Source: Bacteroidetes bacterium HGW-Bacteroidetes-12 (GTDB taxonomy: Bacteria > Bacteroidota > Bacteroidia > Flavobacteriales_E > Vicingaceae). From it: 31,855 nucleotides of DNA. How positions within the stretch are numbered: position 1 is the stretch's first letter; every line of letters begins with the position of its first letter. The stretch is taken from NCBI GenBank assembly GCA_002841035.1, contig PHDR01000001.1:1-31855 (forward strand). The letters are read 5' to 3'. Shown piece after piece: positions 1 to 8,827 of this stretch. The position numbers and the translations under genes are program-made. The notes beneath the pieces are model-generated. The model did no database searches. It had not been told where the DNA came from and was given only the letters and a program-made list of their open reading frames with translations.

Positions 1-157
1 TTATTATTTAGTTCTAATTAATATTTTGTGCTATCATTTTAGCTGGGTTCCTCCTAAATGATAGGCTGTTTTTTGTCATTCAGAAGGAATCTTGCTTATT
101 ATTTAGTTCTAATTAATATTTTGTGCTATCATTTTAGCTGGGTTCCTCCTGAATGAC
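1..157. repeat. 95-bp-period direct repeat with REP-like inverted ends (BIME-like unit, cut by window edge)
   Basis: 1-55 is identical to 96-150 (ttattatttagttctaattaatattttgtgctatcattttagctgggttcctcct). gtcattcagaaggaatc (75-91) is a near-perfect inverse of ggttcctcctgaatgac (141-157). Confidence 0.8.
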
Positions 158-173
158 GAAGGCTATAGAAAAC

Positions 174-222
174 AAAAAATGCTTCAATTAAGGCATTTTT
201 ATCCTTAAAAGAAGCATTTTTT
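174..222. terminator. Hairpin with T-tracts on both strands; likely terminates the minus-strand CRISPR transcript
   Basis: aaaaaatgcttc (174-185) and gaagcatttttt (211-222) form a perfect 12-bp inverted repeat, with an inner ttaagg/ccttaa stem. Confidence 0.65.
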
Positions 223-275
223 ATATCCGATATTCTTTTTTAACTTTTTGATTTTTAACAATTTTCGCAACTGCT
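223..275. promoter_or_regulatory. Putative CRISPR adaptation leader with IHF site (241-253)
   Basis: AT-rich stretch abutting the first repeat. The minus strand of 241-253 reads AATCAAAAAGTTA, an exact match to the IHF consensus WATCAANNNNTTR, 22 bp from the repeat. Confidence 0.6.
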
Positions 276-2220: not shown

Positions 2221-2412
2221 ATGGCAATTACGATTAAAAATGAAATTATTGCTGTTGTTCACCGACCTGTGTAAATGAATGATTATATACAAGTTAAGGT
2301 GTGTTTGATTTCATTTTTTCTATCCTATTTTTAGTAAAAAGGAGTATGTCAAAGAGCTTTAGTAGTTAAAATTAAGGAATATTCTATTTTTCATATCCCA
2401 CACCAAGTTTTT

Positions 2413-2694
2413 TTATTTATCTAAATAATGACCCATTGCAGAAAGCACTTGAACCGTTACGGTATTATTATTTATAGTATAAATCATACTGTCTTTTTGG
2501 TTAATTCTTCTACTCCATTTACCTGCAAGCTCGTGTTTAAGTTGTTCGGGTTGCCCAGTTCCTGTTGTTGGGTGGTCTGATAACTCTTTTAAAATCTGTT
2601 CCAACTTTTTAATGGTTGGTTTATTCCCAAATTTATAATGTTTTTTAATATCAATTTGTGCTGCTTTTTCTATTTTAAGCCTAAACTTCCCCAT
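2413..2694 (-). CDS. yoeB: Txe/YoeB family toxin (copy B; Ser at the position of the conserved catalytic Arg)
   Basis: GTGQPEQLKHELAGKWSRRINQKD...GHY matches the YoeB signature GKPEPLKH...WSRRI...HY. Overlaps the upstream antitoxin by 25 nt. Confidence 0.92.
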   Translation of the reverse strand: MGKFRLKIEKAAQIDIKKHYKFGNKPTIKKLEQILKELSDHPTTGTGQPEQLKHELAGKWSRRINQKDSMIYTINNNTVTVQVLSAMGHYLDK

Positions 2695-2906
2695 ACATCA
2701 TTTGGATTAATTTCTAAATAATCTGCACGTTTTTCTGCATCTTTAATTTTTTTAACAAACTCAGGGTTGTAAGGGCTTTTTTCTTTTACAACTGGTGCAC
2801 TAACAATTTCAACTGCTTTTTCTTTAGCAACAAAAGTTTTAAGAAAAGCTAAAAAAGTTTTTCCTGCAATGGTATTGTCGTTAATTTTTAATGTTAGTGT
2901 TGTCAT
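2670..2906 (-). CDS. Antitoxin, DUF2683-like (copy B)
   Basis: 78 aa directly upstream of and overlapping yoeB. The KSPYNPEFV motif is typical of Bacteroidota DUF2683 proteins (recognised from memory). Confidence 0.8.
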   Translation of the reverse strand: MTTLTLKINDNTIAGKTFLAFLKTFVAKEKAVEIVSAPVVKEKSPYNPEFVKKIKDAEKRADYLEINPNDVWGSLGLK

Positions 2907-2920
2907 ATATTGTAAGTTTT

Positions 2921-3202
2921 TTATTTATCAGCATAATGCCCTATTGCAGAAATAACATCAACCACTACGGTGGTATTGTTTATGGAGTAAACCATACGGT
3001 CTTTTTGGTTAATTCTCCTACTCCATTTACCTGCGAGTTCGTGTTTTAATTGTTCAGGCTGTCCTGTTCCTGTGGTTGGGTGATTTTTTAGTTCCTCCAG
3101 TATCTTTTTAATTTTTGTTTCAGCGGCTTTATTGCCTGATTTTTTATGTTTGGCAATATCGTCTTTTGCCTTTTGGGTTAAGAAAACTACAAACTTGCCC
3201 AT
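2921..3202 (-). CDS. yoeB: Txe/YoeB family toxin (copy A)
   Basis: Same YoeB signature, with KDRMVY retaining the Arg and a C-terminal GHY. Overlaps the antitoxin by 16 nt. Confidence 0.93.
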   Translation of the reverse strand: MGKFVVFLTQKAKDDIAKHKKSGNKAAETKIKKILEELKNHPTTGTGQPEQLKHELAGKWSRRINQKDRMVYSINNTTVVVDVISAIGHYADK

Positions 3203-3417
3203 AAATCGTTAACATCTTTTACTTCTGTTCTGTTTTTGCTTTTTTCGGCTTTGTTTATCATTTTAACAAACTCAGGATTGTAAGGGCTTTTTTCTTTTAC
3301 AACTGGTGCTTTAATAATTTCAACTGCTTTTTCTTTAGCAACAAAGGTTTTAAGAAAAGCTAAAAAAGTTTTTCCTGCATTTGTTTTGTCGTTAATTTTT
3401 AGGGTTAGTGTGGTCAT
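3187..3417 (-). CDS. Antitoxin, DUF2683-like (copy A)
   Basis: 76 aa, KSPYNPEFV motif, 48 of the first 52 residues identical to copy B, upstream of yoeB. Confidence 0.8.
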   Translation of the reverse strand: MTTLTLKINDKTNAGKTFLAFLKTFVAKEKAVEIIKAPVVKEKSPYNPEFVKMINKAEKSKNRTEVKDVNDLWASL

Positions 3418-3443
3418 AACTTTTATGTGTTCTATTCCTGTTT

Positions 3444-3451
3444 CAAAATTA
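3444..3451 (-). promoter_or_regulatory. Bacteroidota sigma70 -7 element for the DUF2683-yoeB operon
   Basis: TAATTTTG on the minus strand (consensus TAnnTTTG), 26 bp upstream of the ATG at 3417. Confidence 0.6.
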
Positions 3452-3474
3452 AGAAAAAATTATAAAATGAATTT

Positions 3475-3741
3475 TTAAGGAAAAACTTTATAAATATCGT
3501 TTCGTTTTACCAAACGAGCCATTTCAATCGTTTCATTGTCGTAATAAAATCCTAATCGGTAATTACCTATTCTAATTCGGTATGCAGTAGAATAACCTTT
3601 TAATTTTTTTAGGTTGGTCAACTCCTTTAAATTTTCAGCTTTCTCTATCTCTAAAATAATTGTTTTTACCTGTTCTCTCTCTTTTACATTCGTAATTTTA
3701 AGTAAATCTTTTTTAAAACTGTTTAAAAAGATGACTTTCAT
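3475..3741 (-). CDS. RelE/StbE (RelE/ParE superfamily) toxin
   Basis: 88 aa basic protein. MKVIFLNSFKKDL...KKLKG...YRIRIGNYRLGF...RNDIY is the RelE pattern. ATGA overlap with the upstream gene. Confidence 0.88.
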   Translation of the reverse strand: MKVIFLNSFKKDLLKITNVKEREQVKTIILEIEKAENLKELTNLKKLKGYSTAYRIRIGNYRLGFYYDNETIEMARLVKRNDIYKVFP

Positions 3742-3992
3742 TTTTTGTTTAAGATTTCCATAATATCATCACGGTTTGCCAAATCGGTTCTGTCGGCTTG
3801 TTGCATCAATAACAGTAAGCCTAAATCTTCTTTTTCTTCGCTGGTAAGTTTATCTAAGCGTTGTTTTTCTTTTTGAGCCACAAACCAACGCACGGCTTCT
3901 TCCATCAAGCCTTTTACACTGTTGTTTTCAAAAACAGATAATATCTTCAATTTGGTTAAAATAGCTTCGTCTATGTCAATATTTTTCCGCAT
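3738..3992 (-). CDS. Ribbon-helix-helix (CopG-like) antitoxin
   Basis: N-terminal alternating beta strand RKNIDID followed by two helices, acidic C-terminus, translationally coupled to relE. Confidence 0.72.
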   Translation of the reverse strand: MRKNIDIDEAILTKLKILSVFENNSVKGLMEEAVRWFVAQKEKQRLDKLTSEEKEDLGLLLLMQQADRTDLANRDDIMEILNKK

Positions 3993-4007
3993 TTGTTATT
4001 TTTTTTA

Positions 4008-4037
4008 CAAATATACACAATGTATATGATACATACA
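4008..4037 (-). promoter_or_regulatory. Promoter -7 element overlapped by a putative RHH operator
   Basis: TATATTTG on minus (4008-4015). Inverted repeat ATATACA-caa-TGTATAT (4011-4027), with further ATACA half-sites at 4029-4037. Confidence 0.6.
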
Positions 4038-4044
4038 GTTGGTT

Positions 4045-7000
4045 TTATATTTTTTCTATTTTGCCTGTTGGGGTTATTTGAACTTTTATTGGATTAAAAC
4101 TATACCACCCTGTTTTGCCCTCTCTAAATCCTTTAATATAAACATAATCCGCTTCGGTTGAAATTTTGCTATCCGTATGTCTTCTAAAACAGATTTCCAT
4201 AAAATAATCTGCTCCAGCAATCTTTTGAACCTTAAATAAATGGCTAAATATCTCCTTTTGGTTTAAATCCTCTATGTTTCTATCTTTCTCTAAAAATAGA
4301 AGAAACATATCATTTTCTTGAAATGTTTCTACAACCTCAACTCCATCGCTGGGCAATTGTACTATTTCATTATTTTGTTTTATCCGCTCAACTGCTGTCC
4401 AAAAACTAACCACATCTTTATCTAAATCCCCATTTTCTTTTTTATAAATTAAAACGTGATGATTATTTCTAGGGTTTACAAATTGGTTAATTTCCTTTAC
4501 TTGTTGGGCATTGCTCATTTCTTCTCTAATTCGCACTTTTTTAATAGGAACTCGTTCACCGTTTTTATTTTTTAAGGTGTAGAGCAAATCAATTTGTTTT
4601 TTCAAATCTTGTATTTGGTTGTTTAAAGCAGTTTCTTCTTCATCGCTATGCACTTTCTTTTTTTGCTTTTCTAAAACGTCTATGTGTTTTTTTATGGTTA
4701 CTTCTTCTTTTCGGGCATTTATAATAATTTTTCTGATTTCTAAGTCCACAATTTTATCCAATTGATTGTCCTTTAAATCTACTACCTTTTTACGAATGTG
4801 GTAACCTTTTGTAGTTTCAAAGGGAGCTTGTCGTTTCCCATACACGTTTTCTTTGTGTAATTGACCCCGTACGGCATTACCAACACTTGTAAATGTTTTT
4901 CCATTTTTGGTAATTTTCTTTCGTACTTCGGTGAGTACTTTTCGGTTTTGTTTGTGAGAAATCAATATTTTTTCGGCTTCTTTTTTGGCATCGGTATGAA
5001 AACCATTCCAAGGGTCAGGAAAATCTAATTGTTCTTTTTCAAATGAGTTTAATTTCTTTTTAGCATCACGAGCAGCATTATAAGCACTCAATTGCTGAAA
5101 ATAACTTTGTTTTGATAAAGCGATTACTAAGGCATCAATAGCGTGGTGGCGGTGGTCGTCTCTGTTTTTCTTTGGGTCAAATTTAATTTCTCCAGTGTAT
5201 TTATCTACCCAAATATTCCCTTCAACTAATGTTTGTTTTTCTTGTAAAAGTGGTTTGGGTTGTTCGATGGCATTGAAATCGGTTAATTCATTAAGAATAT
5301 CAAAAACAAACCAATATTTACCTGGTTTTTCATTGGTTTTAAATTGATGTTGAGCATCAATTTCAGAAACAAAAATACCTTCATCATTGACACTACCTTC
5401 CACAATAATTTTAGCATCCGAAACAATAGGACGTTCATTTATGGCTCTTTCAAATGAAGCATTTTCTGTATCAATATCCAACAACAACCAATATTTACCG
5501 TCTAATTCATTTGTTTCACACGAATAAATATACGATTTAAAAAAGCCTTCTTTTACTTCGCCAAACAACAATACTTGTTTTCCCGATTTTTTAGGTTGTT
5601 TATCTTTTTCGGGTGCTTCAAACTTTTTGTTTGTAATGGTAAATTTTGCCCAATACGAACCATTATCAAAACCTTTGGCAGTAACCAACCCAATGCCCTC
5701 ATTTTTAAATTTTTCCTTTTCAACCTTTCCTCTCAAAACTATTTCATTTTCTGAGGTTTCTGGTCTTTCTCTAAAAATACGTATGATTTGTTTTGGTTCA
5801 GAAAGTTTTAAATTCAACCAATATTCGCCATTTACCAATTCGGGAGTTTTAACTTCAAGTTTTACAAATTGTTCGGAGGTTTTAAAAACTCCTTTCTCCA
5901 CTTTGCCGGTAATGGTTGTTTCGTTTTCTCCTAATTTTGGTTTGTCATTGTAAATAGGTAAGGTTAAAACGGGTTTATTATTTTCATCCATTACCACATA
6001 ATGTGGTATTGATTTTCCTGCTTCTAATTTATAATCGGGCAAATCGACCAACATTACGGGTTGAAGTATATTATTTAAACCCCACAAATGCCTTAACTCG
6101 GCTGTTAAACCACCAGGCAAAACTCTTACATCTTCGCAAACTTGCGACATAATTTCTTTTGTTTTACGGCTGATGTAACGCATATCGTTTAATTGTCGCT
6201 CAATAAAACTACTTTTTACATCGGCATCTTCTACTTTAATTTTAGATGTAAATCGTTTGGCTTTTGGGTAAGGTAAGACTTTGTAAGCTCTTTGCTCTAC
6301 ATCTTCCCAGCTTGTTGCTCCTCCCCACAATTTTGAATCGCTATTTTTTAAATAAAATTGATAGGGAGTTAAGTTTCCTTTCAAACCATTAAACTTGGCA
6401 TCGCAAAGGGTTTTGTTGGCAAAACCATCATCTAAAGAAACGCTTTTAGGAATAATATGCTCAATCTGAATTTTATTTTCTCTGCCCAACACATCGCTAA
6501 TATTGATGGATTTATTGGTGTAAGGACAAACTGTAGTTACCCCTTTTTCCTGCATTTCTTTATAGAGCAACACTTTTTGGATGTTTTCCCTATCGTGCTT
6601 TAAGCCATATTCTGTTAACAATTTTCGAGCTTCGTCATTTTTGGTAGTGTTGTCATAAATTCTTCTCGTTTGTTCTTGCCTTCCTTTTTTGCTGTTTTTT
6701 ACTTCTCTTCCTAATTCAACTTGAATTCTATCAAATTTCCCATATTCACCAATTAGTTGGTTTACTAATCTTCGAGTTTCGTTGATACCTTGCTGCACAA
6801 TTGGGTTTCTTAAATTTTCAACCGCATCTAATCTATCTTGAAGTTGTTTTTCTTCAATTTCTTGGCTGTGATGATACAACTTGATAAAAGATTTGTCGTC
6901 TTTTAAAAATCCAAATTTATTTTCTGGGTCAGCCAAATAATTTTTAATTTTTTGAATTGCTTCTCCTTCTTTATTATTTTTCTCGTGATTAATTTTTAAA

Positions 7001-8664
7001 ATATCGTTTTCCAATTGCTCGTGAGCATCTTTAAAATAATCCCAACGTTTGCCAAATACATTTCTAACGCCACCTAAAATGGTGGCATCGCTCATTTGCA
7101 GTCCTTGTTGTAAATAGGGTAAAATATTTTTAATTGCTTTTAACGAAACATTAGAATAACCTTCTTTTAGATTGATTTTATCAACTTTTTCAATGTCTTT
7201 TTCTGCTAAACCAAAATCTTTTTTTAGTTTTTCTATTAGATTGTCGCTGTCTTCAAAAAAATGAAAACAATGCCAAATTTCTTCCTTGTTTGCTTCATAA
7301 ATTTCTTTGGAAAATAATGTACTTAAATGTTTAGTAGTAGAATTAGCTGCTACTTTTTGGTCGTCCGAATAATTCCATTTTTCATATTCCATTTTTAATT
7401 TTTTCGGAATTTCCGAAAAATTGAAATTACTGTCTTTTGAATTAATTAACTCTAATACTTGAAGTCGTTGTGTTTCTTCTAATTTCTGTTTTTTACCATA
7501 CTCAATGTTGTTGATGTATTGATACGCTCTAAATTCTTCATACAGAGGATGTGATAAATGGCAAGGCGTTTTTCCTCTTTGTAAATATTTGCCATTTTTA
7601 TCCTTAAAATCAGGCTCGAACCTACATTTTGCCAACAAGCCTTTTTGCGAACGCAATGGTCGCTGCCAAAATAGCACACTGTCTTGGCTTTTATGCTTCA
7701 CGTTTCCCTCATCATCGTGTTCAATTTTACCACCTAAAAATATTTTTAGTGGAACATTGGTTGTTGTAGTTACTTTATAAAGTGTTTTTTTACTTTTCCC
7801 GTCTTTTAACTCTTCAATTTTTACATTTTCAACACCATACTTATTTTGAAGGTTTTCAATTTTCTTTTTGTTCCTGTTATTTTTAAGACTTCCATTTAAA
7901 AATTGGATTTTTGTTTTTGTTGCGTTTTTGTCATCTAATCCTAAGGCTTTAGCTTGTCTGTTCCAAATTTGGTCAAATTCTTCCACATACATATCTCGCA
8001 AGGTGTATCTTGCTCTAACTCGGAGTTCATTGCCATTTTCATCGGTAATTAACTTAAAAGGTTCTCCTTCTTTCGGAAAAATTGAATGTAGAAAACTACC
8101 TAGGGTTTTTTCTGAAATTTGTTTTTGGGTATCTTTAATGCCAACCATTCCTGGTTTTCCTTTGTATATTGCTCCATCGTCTTTTCCTTTCCTATTACTC
8201 AAAAATCCTCTTCGCTGTATTAAATGATATAACACACGTCCCATTTGAAAAAGAGTCAAATCTTCATATAAAGCCTTTTCTCTTAAAACATAAGGATTTA
8301 GTCTGTGCCATTCTTCATAATTGGGTGAATCTGGTGCTTTTCTGCCTGCTTTTCCTTTTGTTTTCTCCCATTTCGCCCAAACATCTAACTCTAAATGAGT
8401 TAATGGACACATTTTTAAGTCAATTAATGTTCTAAGCAATTTTATTTTCCGAAGTCGTTTTCTGTAAAATTGTCGTCTTTGTTGCCTACTAGTTCTTCGG
8501 GAAGCATTTTTTGATTCTTCTTTATCTCCTTTTCCTATTGTATCAGCTTTTACTCCTTCTGGAAATATCCTACTTCCAATACCAAGTATTTTATTGTTTG
8601 TATCATCCACCACTGCCCACCCAATGCTGTTAGTTCCTAAATCTAATCCTAAAATTTTGCTCAT
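4045..8664 (-). CDS. cas9: Type II-C CRISPR endonuclease Cas9, 1539 aa, with large insertions
   Basis: RuvC-I LGLDLGTNSIGWA (D8), Arg-rich bridge helix, RuvC-II VELGRE (E650), HNH QIEHIIP...ANKTLC...FNGLKGN (H736), RuvC-III DHRHHAIDA (H1174, D1177). No csn2 or cas4 nearby. Confidence 0.99.
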   Translation of the reverse strand: MSKILGLDLGTNSIGWAVVDDTNNKILGIGSRIFPEGVKADTIGKGDKEESKNASRRTSRQQRRQFYRKRLRKIKLLRTLIDLKMCPLTHLELDVWAKWEKTKGKAGRKAPDSPNYEEWHRLNPYVLREKALYEDLTLFQMGRVLYHLIQRRGFLSNRKGKDDGAIYKGKPGMVGIKDTQKQISEKTLGSFLHSIFPKEGEPFKLITDENGNELRVRARYTLRDMYVEEFDQIWNRQAKALGLDDKNATKTKIQFLNGSLKNNRNKKKIENLQNKYGVENVKIEELKDGKSKKTLYKVTTTTNVPLKIFLGGKIEHDDEGNVKHKSQDSVLFWQRPLRSQKGLLAKCRFEPDFKDKNGKYLQRGKTPCHLSHPLYEEFRAYQYINNIEYGKKQKLEETQRLQVLELINSKDSNFNFSEIPKKLKMEYEKWNYSDDQKVAANSTTKHLSTLFSKEIYEANKEEIWHCFHFFEDSDNLIEKLKKDFGLAEKDIEKVDKINLKEGYSNVSLKAIKNILPYLQQGLQMSDATILGGVRNVFGKRWDYFKDAHEQLENDILKINHEKNNKEGEAIQKIKNYLADPENKFGFLKDDKSFIKLYHHSQEIEEKQLQDRLDAVENLRNPIVQQGINETRRLVNQLIGEYGKFDRIQVELGREVKNSKKGRQEQTRRIYDNTTKNDEARKLLTEYGLKHDRENIQKVLLYKEMQEKGVTTVCPYTNKSINISDVLGRENKIQIEHIIPKSVSLDDGFANKTLCDAKFNGLKGNLTPYQFYLKNSDSKLWGGATSWEDVEQRAYKVLPYPKAKRFTSKIKVEDADVKSSFIERQLNDMRYISRKTKEIMSQVCEDVRVLPGGLTAELRHLWGLNNILQPVMLVDLPDYKLEAGKSIPHYVVMDENNKPVLTLPIYNDKPKLGENETTITGKVEKGVFKTSEQFVKLEVKTPELVNGEYWLNLKLSEPKQIIRIFRERPETSENEIVLRGKVEKEKFKNEGIGLVTAKGFDNGSYWAKFTITNKKFEAPEKDKQPKKSGKQVLLFGEVKEGFFKSYIYSCETNELDGKYWLLLDIDTENASFERAINERPIVSDAKIIVEGSVNDEGIFVSEIDAQHQFKTNEKPGKYWFVFDILNELTDFNAIEQPKPLLQEKQTLVEGNIWVDKYTGEIKFDPKKNRDDHRHHAIDALVIALSKQSYFQQLSAYNAARDAKKKLNSFEKEQLDFPDPWNGFHTDAKKEAEKILISHKQNRKVLTEVRKKITKNGKTFTSVGNAVRGQLHKENVYGKRQAPFETTKGYHIRKKVVDLKDNQLDKIVDLEIRKIIINARKEEVTIKKHIDVLEKQKKKVHSDEEETALNNQIQDLKKQIDLLYTLKNKNGERVPIKKVRIREEMSNAQQVKEINQFVNPRNNHHVLIYKKENGDLDKDVVSFWTAVERIKQNNEIVQLPSDGVEVVETFQENDMFLLFLEKDRNIEDLNQKEIFSHLFKVQKIAGADYFMEICFRRHTDSKISTEADYVYIKGFREGKTGWYSFNPIKVQITPTGKIEKI

Positions 8665-8734: not shown

Positions 8735-8827
8735 AGAAAAAAGAATCCTAATCTTTAATCTTATCACAATAAGGCTATATGCCGTAGATGAAAATCTTTA
8801 GTCCCGCTTCGGTGGGACTTTTTTTTT
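8735..8827 (+). ncRNA. tracrRNA (5' end approximate)
   Basis: Anti-repeat 8746-8770 pairs with repeat nt 1-25 (two G-U pairs, a 2x2 U-U loop). It is followed by the nexus AAGGC-UAUAU-GCC, the hairpin AGAU-GAAA-AUCU, and a UUCG-capped hairpin with a U-tract. Confidence 0.93.
8800..8827 (+). terminator. Intrinsic terminator of tracrRNA
   Basis: AGTCCCGC-TTCG-GTGGGACT followed by a run of T. Confidence 0.88.

Follow-up and report, generated by a model that had tools for sequence, protein, structure and literature searches.

Three type II toxin-antitoxin modules between cas9 and the array of a Bacteroidota type II-C CRISPR locus: probable autonomous cassettes at a recurrent junction hotspot

The closest described counterpart of the locus considered here is found in Flavobacterium columnare, where a type II toxin-antitoxin (TA) pair, parDE, lies between cas9 and the array of a CRISPR locus (PMC6895309; Hoikkala et al. 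2021, PMC8092290). The leader and cas1-cas2 occupy one side of that array, and CRISPR RNA (crRNA) transcription runs towards the leader (PMC8092290, PMC6895309). The present analysis concerns a type II-C locus of Bacteroidetes bacterium HGW-Bacteroidetes-12, carried on contig PHDR01000001.1, all 31,855 nucleotides of which were analysed (hereafter the window), and in particular the three TA modules standing between its cas9 and its array. Both loci show the arrangement of cas9, same-strand type II TA genes at the acquisition-distal end of the array, and the array itself, with the side of the leader and of cas1-cas2 opposite, and the F. columnare repeat is nearly the same as that of the window (GTTGTGGTTTGATTAAAGATTAG...). 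They differ in that F. columnare holds one parDE, whereas the window holds an RH3-RelE module and two DUF2683-YoeB modules, with cas1-cas2 off the contig. TA genes between cas9 and array are thus known from F. columnare; the different TA families and the presence of three modules are new here.

Other couplings of TA genes and CRISPR systems are more distant. In type I systems, CreTA elements form RNA toxin-antitoxin pairs under CRISPR regulation (PMC12737573; PMC10097628), and they share with the window a TA element inside the CRISPR-cas locus and a proposed cost of losing the cas genes. In CreTA, however, both CreT and CreA are small RNAs, CreA being a degenerate mini-CRISPR by which the effector is directed to the toxin promoter and represses it, a mechanistic coupling, whereas the window carries protein type II TAs with a predicted operator of their own, and neither a CreA-like repeat nor a seed-matching spacer was found in it. 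Type I TA pairs lie beside arrays in Clostridioides difficile (Maikova et al. 2018, as cited in PMC8092290), and in Leptotrichia a HicAB pair accompanies Cas13a and is reported to be activated by Cas13a activity (PMC13448076). These two cases resemble the window in the physical linkage of TA genes to arrays or effectors, for which a second line of defence has been suggested; they differ in the TA and CRISPR types involved, and activation of the HicAB kind is reported for Cas13a and is not known for Cas9. Superintegron TA cassettes stabilise chromosomal gene arrays and islands by killing deletion segregants. They too are small autonomous TA modules in a dispensable, recombination-prone region; the window differs in having no attC or integrase context, and stabilisation of its CRISPR locus is putative. 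Cas9-linked protein TAs are not mentioned in a 2025 review of TA-CRISPR coupling.

For the window, the reading favoured here, with a probability of roughly 60%, is that three autonomous type II TA cassettes are stacked at a recurrent hotspot of a split II-C locus; at most, they would lend the locus incidental stability or serve as a separate layer of abortive infection. Accumulation at a hotspot had been the fallback of the original prediction, a reading of the nucleotide sequence by itself, and it fits best with the patchy recurrence, the generic TA families and the predicted promoter/operator described below. The gene order given in that prediction, namely cas9, RH3/ribbon-helix-helix (RHH)-RelE, DUF2683-YoeB, DUF2683-YoeB and array, is borne out by the open reading frame (ORF) list and the family scans. 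All of these genes are on the minus strand and tightly packed, as is apparent from the coordinates: six small ORFs in three overlapping pairs span positions 2413-3992, and 52 bp (3993-4044) separate the cas9 stop from the first antitoxin start. A simple scan found no minus-strand terminator from cas9 to the array, in agreement with the earlier remark that none was obvious. The type II-C assignment is consistent with a Cas9 that has RuvC and HNH domains, with a candidate trans-activating crRNA (tracrRNA), and with the absence of csn2 and cas4 beside cas9, where the downstream ORFs are of TA type and a GH3-family gene adjoins on the upstream side.

Of the six ORFs that separate cas9 from the array, five exceed the cut-off of a TA family; the sixth, antitoxin 1, shows a weak RH3_dom match only (21.5 bits against a cut-off of 27) and no NCBIfam match. 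Its gene overlaps that of toxin 1 by 4 bp, and in its homologues, which are 64-87% identical, a RelE-like toxin is always next downstream. Toxin 1 matches RelE3 (PDB 3bpq_B) over its full length with an E value of 8e-15. Both YoeB copies exceed the TIGR02116 equivalog cut-off, and their partner here is a DUF2683 protein (PF10884), not a YefM/Phd-type antitoxin, antitoxins 2 and 3 being 77% identical (alignment A4). In a model of the complex, DUF2683 residues 43-76 contact YoeB copy A with a score of 0.62 (best control, 0.00); in the benchmark, that mark is reached by 51 of the 78 solved complexes and by 2 of the 108 mismatched pairs. The model supports binding of YoeB copy A by the C-terminal tail of DUF2683. 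The catalytic residues of YoeB are Glu46, Arg65, His83 and Tyr84 in E. coli numbering, and alignment to the E. coli protein (2a6q) indicates that copy A has kept Glu and Arg (in PE and DR-MVY) as well as the His-Tyr at its C-terminus. Copy B carries Ser at the Arg65 position (codon 2488-2490), its QKDSMIY aligning with ENRLIY of a solved YoeB where copy A has QKDRMVY; judged from this substitution, copy B may be attenuated.

The place of these modules is best understood from the architecture of related loci. Loci whose Cas9 is related to that of the window, 18 from genomes and 80 from metagenomes, were surveyed for arrays, Cas1 and Cas2; the textbook order cas9-cas1-cas2-array was seen in about 42 loci and a split architecture, tracrRNA<- cas9-> array-> <-cas2 <-cas1, in 37. 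The split set includes all close relatives of the window Cas9, which is 59-83% identical to those of loci L014-L021. Sequence on the far side of the array extends for more than 1.5 kb in 21 split loci, and in 20 of them a convergent cas2-cas1 pair (PF09827, PF01867) is found there, the exception being L026 from Flavobacterium aciduliphilum. The end of cas2 lies within 280 bp of the array in 15 of these 20 relatives; at L015, L054, L059 and L117 the distance is greater than 400 bp and cas2-cas1 are still present farther on. The gap contains repetitive extragenic palindromic (REP)-like repeats and an IS200-like transposase at L015, and two TA modules within 1.9 kb at L117, a locus of the same genus (G005:C14). 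An empty cas9-array junction measures 5-210 bp (21 loci) and has no cas genes inside. Consequently, the original claim that the TA modules occupy the cas1-cas2 slot fails, because the cas9-array junction of the relatives holds no cas genes; in this clade cas2-cas1 belong beyond the array.

At this junction TA genes recur, and the association therefore does not belong to a single strain: the gene-neighbourhood survey finds them in 13 of the 37 split-architecture loci, and the F. columnare parDE is published. ParD-ParE pairs occur at L016, L047, L054, L075, L080 and L091, a broken toxin at L082, an antitoxin only at L017 and L025, and ParE with a mere ParD remnant at L021; RH3-RelE homologous to module 1 is present in the window, L015 and L027. 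A GIY-YIG gene is found in 3 of the 37 loci, and 21 of them carry no cargo. A hidden Markov model (HMM) search detected 14 toxin ORFs of the RelE/ParE/YoeB type inside the junctions, whereas 353 kb of sequence flanking these loci yielded none; since the HMMs were built from the junction toxins, flanking TA genes of other families would escape this count. No type II TA was found in the gaps of the approximately 42 canonical-order loci, which hold RAYT-like, RhuM, HIRAN, GIY-YIG and nucleotidyltransferase genes. These observations support a non-random TA/CRISPR association, and the cas9/array junction of the split II-C architecture stands out as a strong hotspot at which type II TA cassettes recur.

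Occupancy of the junction is patchy. On the Cas9 tree of the 37 loci, a minimum of 12 changes is required for the empty state and a minimum of five for parDE. The nearest Cas9 relative of the window, L014 (83% identity), has an empty junction, the next, L015, has RH3-RelE only, and the one after that, L035, is again empty. In the window and at L015, RH3-RelE precedes the conserved motif upstream of the array, but at L027 it follows that motif, a difference in position that implies separate insertions. In canonical II-C loci the gap after cas9 often contains RAYT-like genes (HFHxxV motif) or RhuM-family genes, as noted at L038, L071, L078 and L088 (between cas9 and cas1) and at L110 and L114; since such genes are held there, the site after the cas9 stop seems to be generally tolerant of cargo. 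TA genes were also seen at other positions of related loci. At L117:5883-8085, RelE-like and DUF2683-YafQ modules occupy the opposite junction, where they separate the array from cas2, and on many metagenome contigs, among them L121-L127, the order is cas1-cas2-YafQ-antitoxin. The antitoxin partner of YafQ is DUF2683-like, and the YafQ stop lies 4 bp from the cas2 stop.

The 52-bp spacer upstream of module 1 is a predicted promoter/operator. A GTATATTTGT box and AT-rich palindromes precede homologous antitoxins at the CRISPR-linked loci L015, L027 and L115 and equally at the non-CRISPR loci L116 and L118. The -7 consensus of Bacteroidota promoters is TAnnTTTG, which the GTATATTTGT box fits. 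Occurrence of the upstream TATATTTG box and palindromes in both contexts fits an autonomous, presumably autoregulated RH3-RelE cassette, whose promoter activity and operator function we infer from sequence. A search tolerating as many as 3 mismatches per 18 nt found no solitary CreA-like repeat outside the array. The spacers gave a sole match to the TA region, 14 nt long and inside an antitoxin ORF, which misses the 4 nt of the seed proximal to the protospacer-adjacent motif (PAM). Self-targeting or CreA-like regulation was rejected, the matches being at chance level only. The idea that the modules respond when infection or anti-CRISPRs disturb a transcript shared with cas9 and the array gains nothing from these data: the RelE module has its own conserved box, and neither a CreA-like element nor a seed-matching spacer is at hand.

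A dedicated guard or dormancy back-up would be a protein analogue of CreTA, in which the TA genes would be co-transcribed with cas9 and the array, and loss or inhibition of cas9 expression would free RelE and YoeB and halt the cell. The shared strand, the tight packing and the failure to find a terminator-like site speak for it, as do the recurrence of TA genes at the junction and the existence of a mostly cas9-linked ParD lineage. This lineage emerged when antitoxin alignments were scanned against species-representative genomes. Among the best 80 ParD homologues, 75 were evaluable and 44 of these start 44-56 bp after a cas9 stop, in a sample ordered by similarity to CRISPR-linked queries, whose related loci are non-independent. 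The homologues (L128-L207, e.g., L128:7001-7243) come from Flavobacteriia, and where ParD is cas9-linked an array usually follows about 350 bp further on. Furthermore, ParD identity tracks Cas9 identity (Spearman 0.60), with no correlation for ParE, which suggests co-inheritance or selection over pure hitch-hiking; one parDE lineage thus looks more than opportunistic. A predominantly cas9-linked ParD/ParE lineage appears to have been noted in the literature only for F. columnare. These ParD data count against a hotspot of merely opportunistic cassettes, as do the family restriction of the flank count and the fact that co-transcription is conceivable, since no terminator was found among cas9, cassettes and array.

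A further observation of this kind comes from L021:14560-14788, in the metagenome-assembled genome (MAG) of a Flavobacteriaceae bacterium (G103:C1). There the Cas9 ORF continues in frame into the toxin-binding C-terminal half of ParD (residues ~38-81, 72% identical to junction ParD), the DNA-binding N-terminal half being gone, and the composite ORF overlaps the start of parE. This could be a natural Cas9-antitoxin fusion, as a guard would have it, or an assembly artefact; with an insensitive 41-aa query, it was found in L021 only among 401 sampled genomes of the family.

The support for a guard, i.e., the parDE lineage, the correlation of 0.60 and the L021 fusion, all lies outside the window's own modules. 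Only 4 of 43 evaluable homologues of the RH3 antitoxin follow cas9, with two more at contig ends; among 66 DUF2683 homologues, none lies between cas9 and array and three adjoin cas2. In the window's family, searches at family and order level around the window genome reached 87 genomes and had little power, and returned 24 RelE-like matches, nearly all away from cas9. The window's own genome contains no ParD homologue at E 1e-6. The window modules accordingly belong to generic Bacteroidota TA families, because their RH3, DUF2683 and RelE-like homologues are mostly off CRISPR loci. Against a guard stand, besides this lack of linkage, the conserved upstream box that RH3-RelE carries wherever it is found, the patchy occupancy with a closest Cas9 relative that has no TA, the missing CreA-like element and the seed mismatch of the sole spacer match, and a YoeB copy B without the catalytic Arg. 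A dedicated guard is therefore considered improbable for the window. It is equally doubtful that junction type II TAs at large are selected guardians of Flavobacteriia II-C systems, with parDE as the specialised form and the window stack as an independent re-invention by generic cassettes; if this were true, such modules would be the protein counterpart of CreTA for Cas9.

The original prediction had also described an interference-only Cas9 locus without cas1/cas2. Their absence holds for this contig and reaches no further. Contig C299, which the window represents in full, belongs to an MAG with 434 contigs, an estimated completeness of 87.6% and low coverage, and the interference-only label is unsupported because only 275 bp follow the last repeat on the side where the clade keeps cas2-cas1. 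Positions 123-275 share 74-81% identity with the region between cas2 stop and array in L016, L018, L019, L021 and L120-L125. The left end also contains two copies, 98% identical, of a 61-nt element, with inverted-repeat arms at 72-90 and 140-157; a related copy is intergenic at C170:1993-2060 of the same genome (G000), between era and a CoA-binding protein gene. From its sequence, the element may be a small dispersed hairpin repeat resembling REP elements or miniature inverted-repeat transposable elements (MITEs), and this dispersed repeat probably caused the assembly break.

Within window positions 1-275 no cas2 ORF lies left of the leader, stops being present in all frames. A search of the 434 contigs with Pfam Cas1/Cas2 and the proteins of the relatives found no II-C-type cas1 or cas2; its sole match was a Cas2 on C45 that belongs with a type V-A array. 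The absence of these genes from the assembly carries little weight, because the assembly is 87.6% complete and split into 434 contigs, and the public runs cover the organism at about 5x. Four public runs contain the organism's DNA at about 3-6x, in short Logan contigs; they gave no extension of the left end, the only piece covering positions 26-150, and the contig as deposited at NCBI stops at the identical base. Close Cas2 clusters were rejected as a route to the cas2 of this organism: the corresponding contigs come from other organisms, since their leaders are only 74-81% identical. Quite probably, the II-C cas1-cas2 lie farther left of the window. That they would be found just left of it, an outcome which, joined to a TA association unique to this strain, had been named beforehand as contrary to the original prediction, is made likely by 20 of 21 relatives and by the leader homology; against it, no cas2 ORF adjoins the leader and no cas1 or cas2 of II-C type is on the 434 contigs. 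The uniqueness of the association does not hold.

A truly interference-only locus would have had its cas1-cas2 deleted or displaced and would receive its spacers in trans, e.g., through type V-A adaptation genes. Such genes exist in part in the same genome, which has an intact cas12a (C227:340-4149; TIGR04330, 1448 bits) and, on a 1.9-kb contig (C45, L001:1-1888), the C-terminus of a Cas1, a cas2 and an array of V-A type whose repeat is GTCTATCAAGACTTTAAAATTTCTACTATTGTAGAT; F. columnare is known to use the Cas1 of another system in trans (PMC8092290). The failure to find II-C-type genes on any contig and the stops in all frames left of the leader, a region in which cas2 lies no more than 280 bp from the array in 15 of 20 relatives, point the same way. 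Precedent for loss may exist in L026 (13603-23390; F. aciduliphilum DSM 25663), a candidate true loss of the adaptation module, in which the 8.7 kb past the array lack cas1/cas2 and an IS200-like/RAYT-type ORF comes after the array. On the other side, cas2-cas1 are retained past the array in 20 of 21 relatives, also where the distance is greater than 400 bp, the leader of the window is conserved and all 30 of its repeats are identical, the contig stops in a dispersed repeat of an incomplete assembly, and even the V-A cas1 is just partly assembled. An interference-only locus is consequently regarded as unlikely, although less so than a dedicated guard.

The remaining alternative concerns expression: the cassettes might have been domesticated so that their promoters drive or modulate pre-crRNA synthesis from the acquisition-distal end. 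The crRNA is the minus-strand transcript, read from the TA side towards position 276, because pairing with the tracrRNA sets the orientation. The cassettes have this same orientation, no terminator was found between YoeB copy B and the array, and the F. columnare transcriptome permits transcription from the leader-distal end (PMC8092290). The array, however, keeps an upstream motif of its own, independent of the cassettes. The motif AAGTTCTTTGACAT is conserved in relatives about 75 nt before the first repeat and stands directly after the cas9 stop in relatives without cargo; since it stays adjacent to the array, the window cassettes sit between the cas9 stop and the motif. In addition, 21 of the 37 loci do without any cargo, and II-C repeats are reported to have promoters of their own (Zhang et al. 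2013, as cited in PMC8092290). A role as expression element is therefore very improbable.

The preferred reading, three autonomous cassettes at a hotspot, can be put in mechanistic terms. From the cas9 stop to the transcription-start end of the array there is a short, presumably non-essential junction, in which the cassettes would have lodged; in this Cas9 lineage it would serve as a site where small selfish or defence cassettes (parDE, RH3-RelE, GIY-YIG genes) recurrently land and are retained, with fast gain and loss. Each module would most likely be an ordinary autoregulated TA pair, in which the antitoxin represses its own promoter and its C-terminal tail neutralises a ribosome-dependent mRNase; once antitoxin synthesis stops, the toxin, if active as its family suggests, would arrest translation. 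The cassettes do not substitute for cas1-cas2, whose normal place is beyond the array, off the contig. Any benefit to the CRISPR system would be indirect: the cassettes may incidentally stabilise the cas9-array linkage, because deletions at the junction would free the toxins.

The attractive notion of a locus that traded its adaptation genes for toxins is thereby corrected, since such an exchange is not shown here. For annotation, cassettes of this kind are no evidence of missing cas1/cas2. Stabilisation or back-up of Cas9 by protein TAs is directly testable, because F. columnare carries parDE and is genetically tractable. The coordinates of all features are collected in Table 1.

Table 1. Features of the type II-C locus in the window, with strand and supporting details.
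Feature	Position	Strand	Details
61-nt element, two copies	1-61, 96-156	unassigned	inverted-repeat partner 72-90; region 1-156
Acquisition-leader-like region	123-275	unassigned	homologous to the cas2-to-array spacer of relatives
CRISPR array	276-2220	minus (crRNA sense, GTTGTGGTTTGATT...)	30 identical 36-nt repeats, 29 spacers of 29-30 nt
Array-upstream region, transcription-start/acquisition-distal	2221-2412	minus	motif AAAGCTCTTTGACATACT at 2343-2360
Toxin 3, YoeB copy B, 93 aa	2413-2694	minus	TIGR02116 66.2 bits (cut-off 51.8)
Antitoxin 3, DUF2683, 78 aa	2670-2906	minus	PF10884 42.5 bits
Toxin 2, YoeB copy A, 93 aa	2921-3202	minus	TIGR02116 74.8 bits (cut-off 51.8)
Antitoxin 2, DUF2683, 76 aa	3187-3417	minus	PF10884 43.8 bits
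Toxin 1, RelE family, 88 aa	3475-3741	minus	PF05016 27.7 bits, above cut-off
Antitoxin 1, RH3/ribbon-helix-helix-like, 84 aa	3738-3992	minus	PF22180 E 2.6e-4, below cut-off
RH3-RelE promoter/operator, predicted	3993-4044	minus	52-bp spacer, ATGTAT-CAT-ATACAT palindrome and TATATTTG box
cas9, long Flavobacteriia-type II-C, internal repeat insert	4045-8664	minus	1539 aa; TIGR01865 501 bits, HNH_4, RuvC_III
Candidate tracrRNA, divergent from cas9	8745-8824	plus	anti-repeat 8745-8780, terminator hairpin 8789-8824

The candidate tracrRNA was assigned from pairing and from conservation. Its anti-repeat on the plus strand forms the best RNA duplex with the repeat (-28.2 kcal/mol), and the element has the same position upstream of cas9 in all eight of eight close relatives; the TA insertion leaves it undisturbed. 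An Rfam scan gave nothing at threshold, a sub-threshold match to 'Ysr49' overlapping the candidate. Another possible anti-repeat at ~2300-2315, in the gap between TA genes and array, was dropped, the conserved element upstream of cas9 being preferred. Behind AAGTTCTTTGACAT, relatives L014 and L018-L021 have a stretch resembling an anti-repeat (CAAACCACAACGGAAAA...TTTTCC), which is able to pair with the first repeat at its 5' end; in the window this hairpin is degenerate.

The Cas9 domain matches include PF13395 and PF18541. Between the HNH and RuvC-III regions the protein has an insert of ~300 aa (window 5164-6060), composed of four to five degenerate repeats with a recurring Y-W motif, which is kept in the nine long Cas9s of the clade (alignment A1) and missing from relatives of ~1130 aa.

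A near-identical metagenome contig (L034; JGI 3300038334, 2262 bp, containing Ns) carries RH3-RelE followed by a single DUF2683-YoeB module that is 97.6% identical to copy B. It was not used, strain polymorphism and assembly collapse of the paralogues both being possible.

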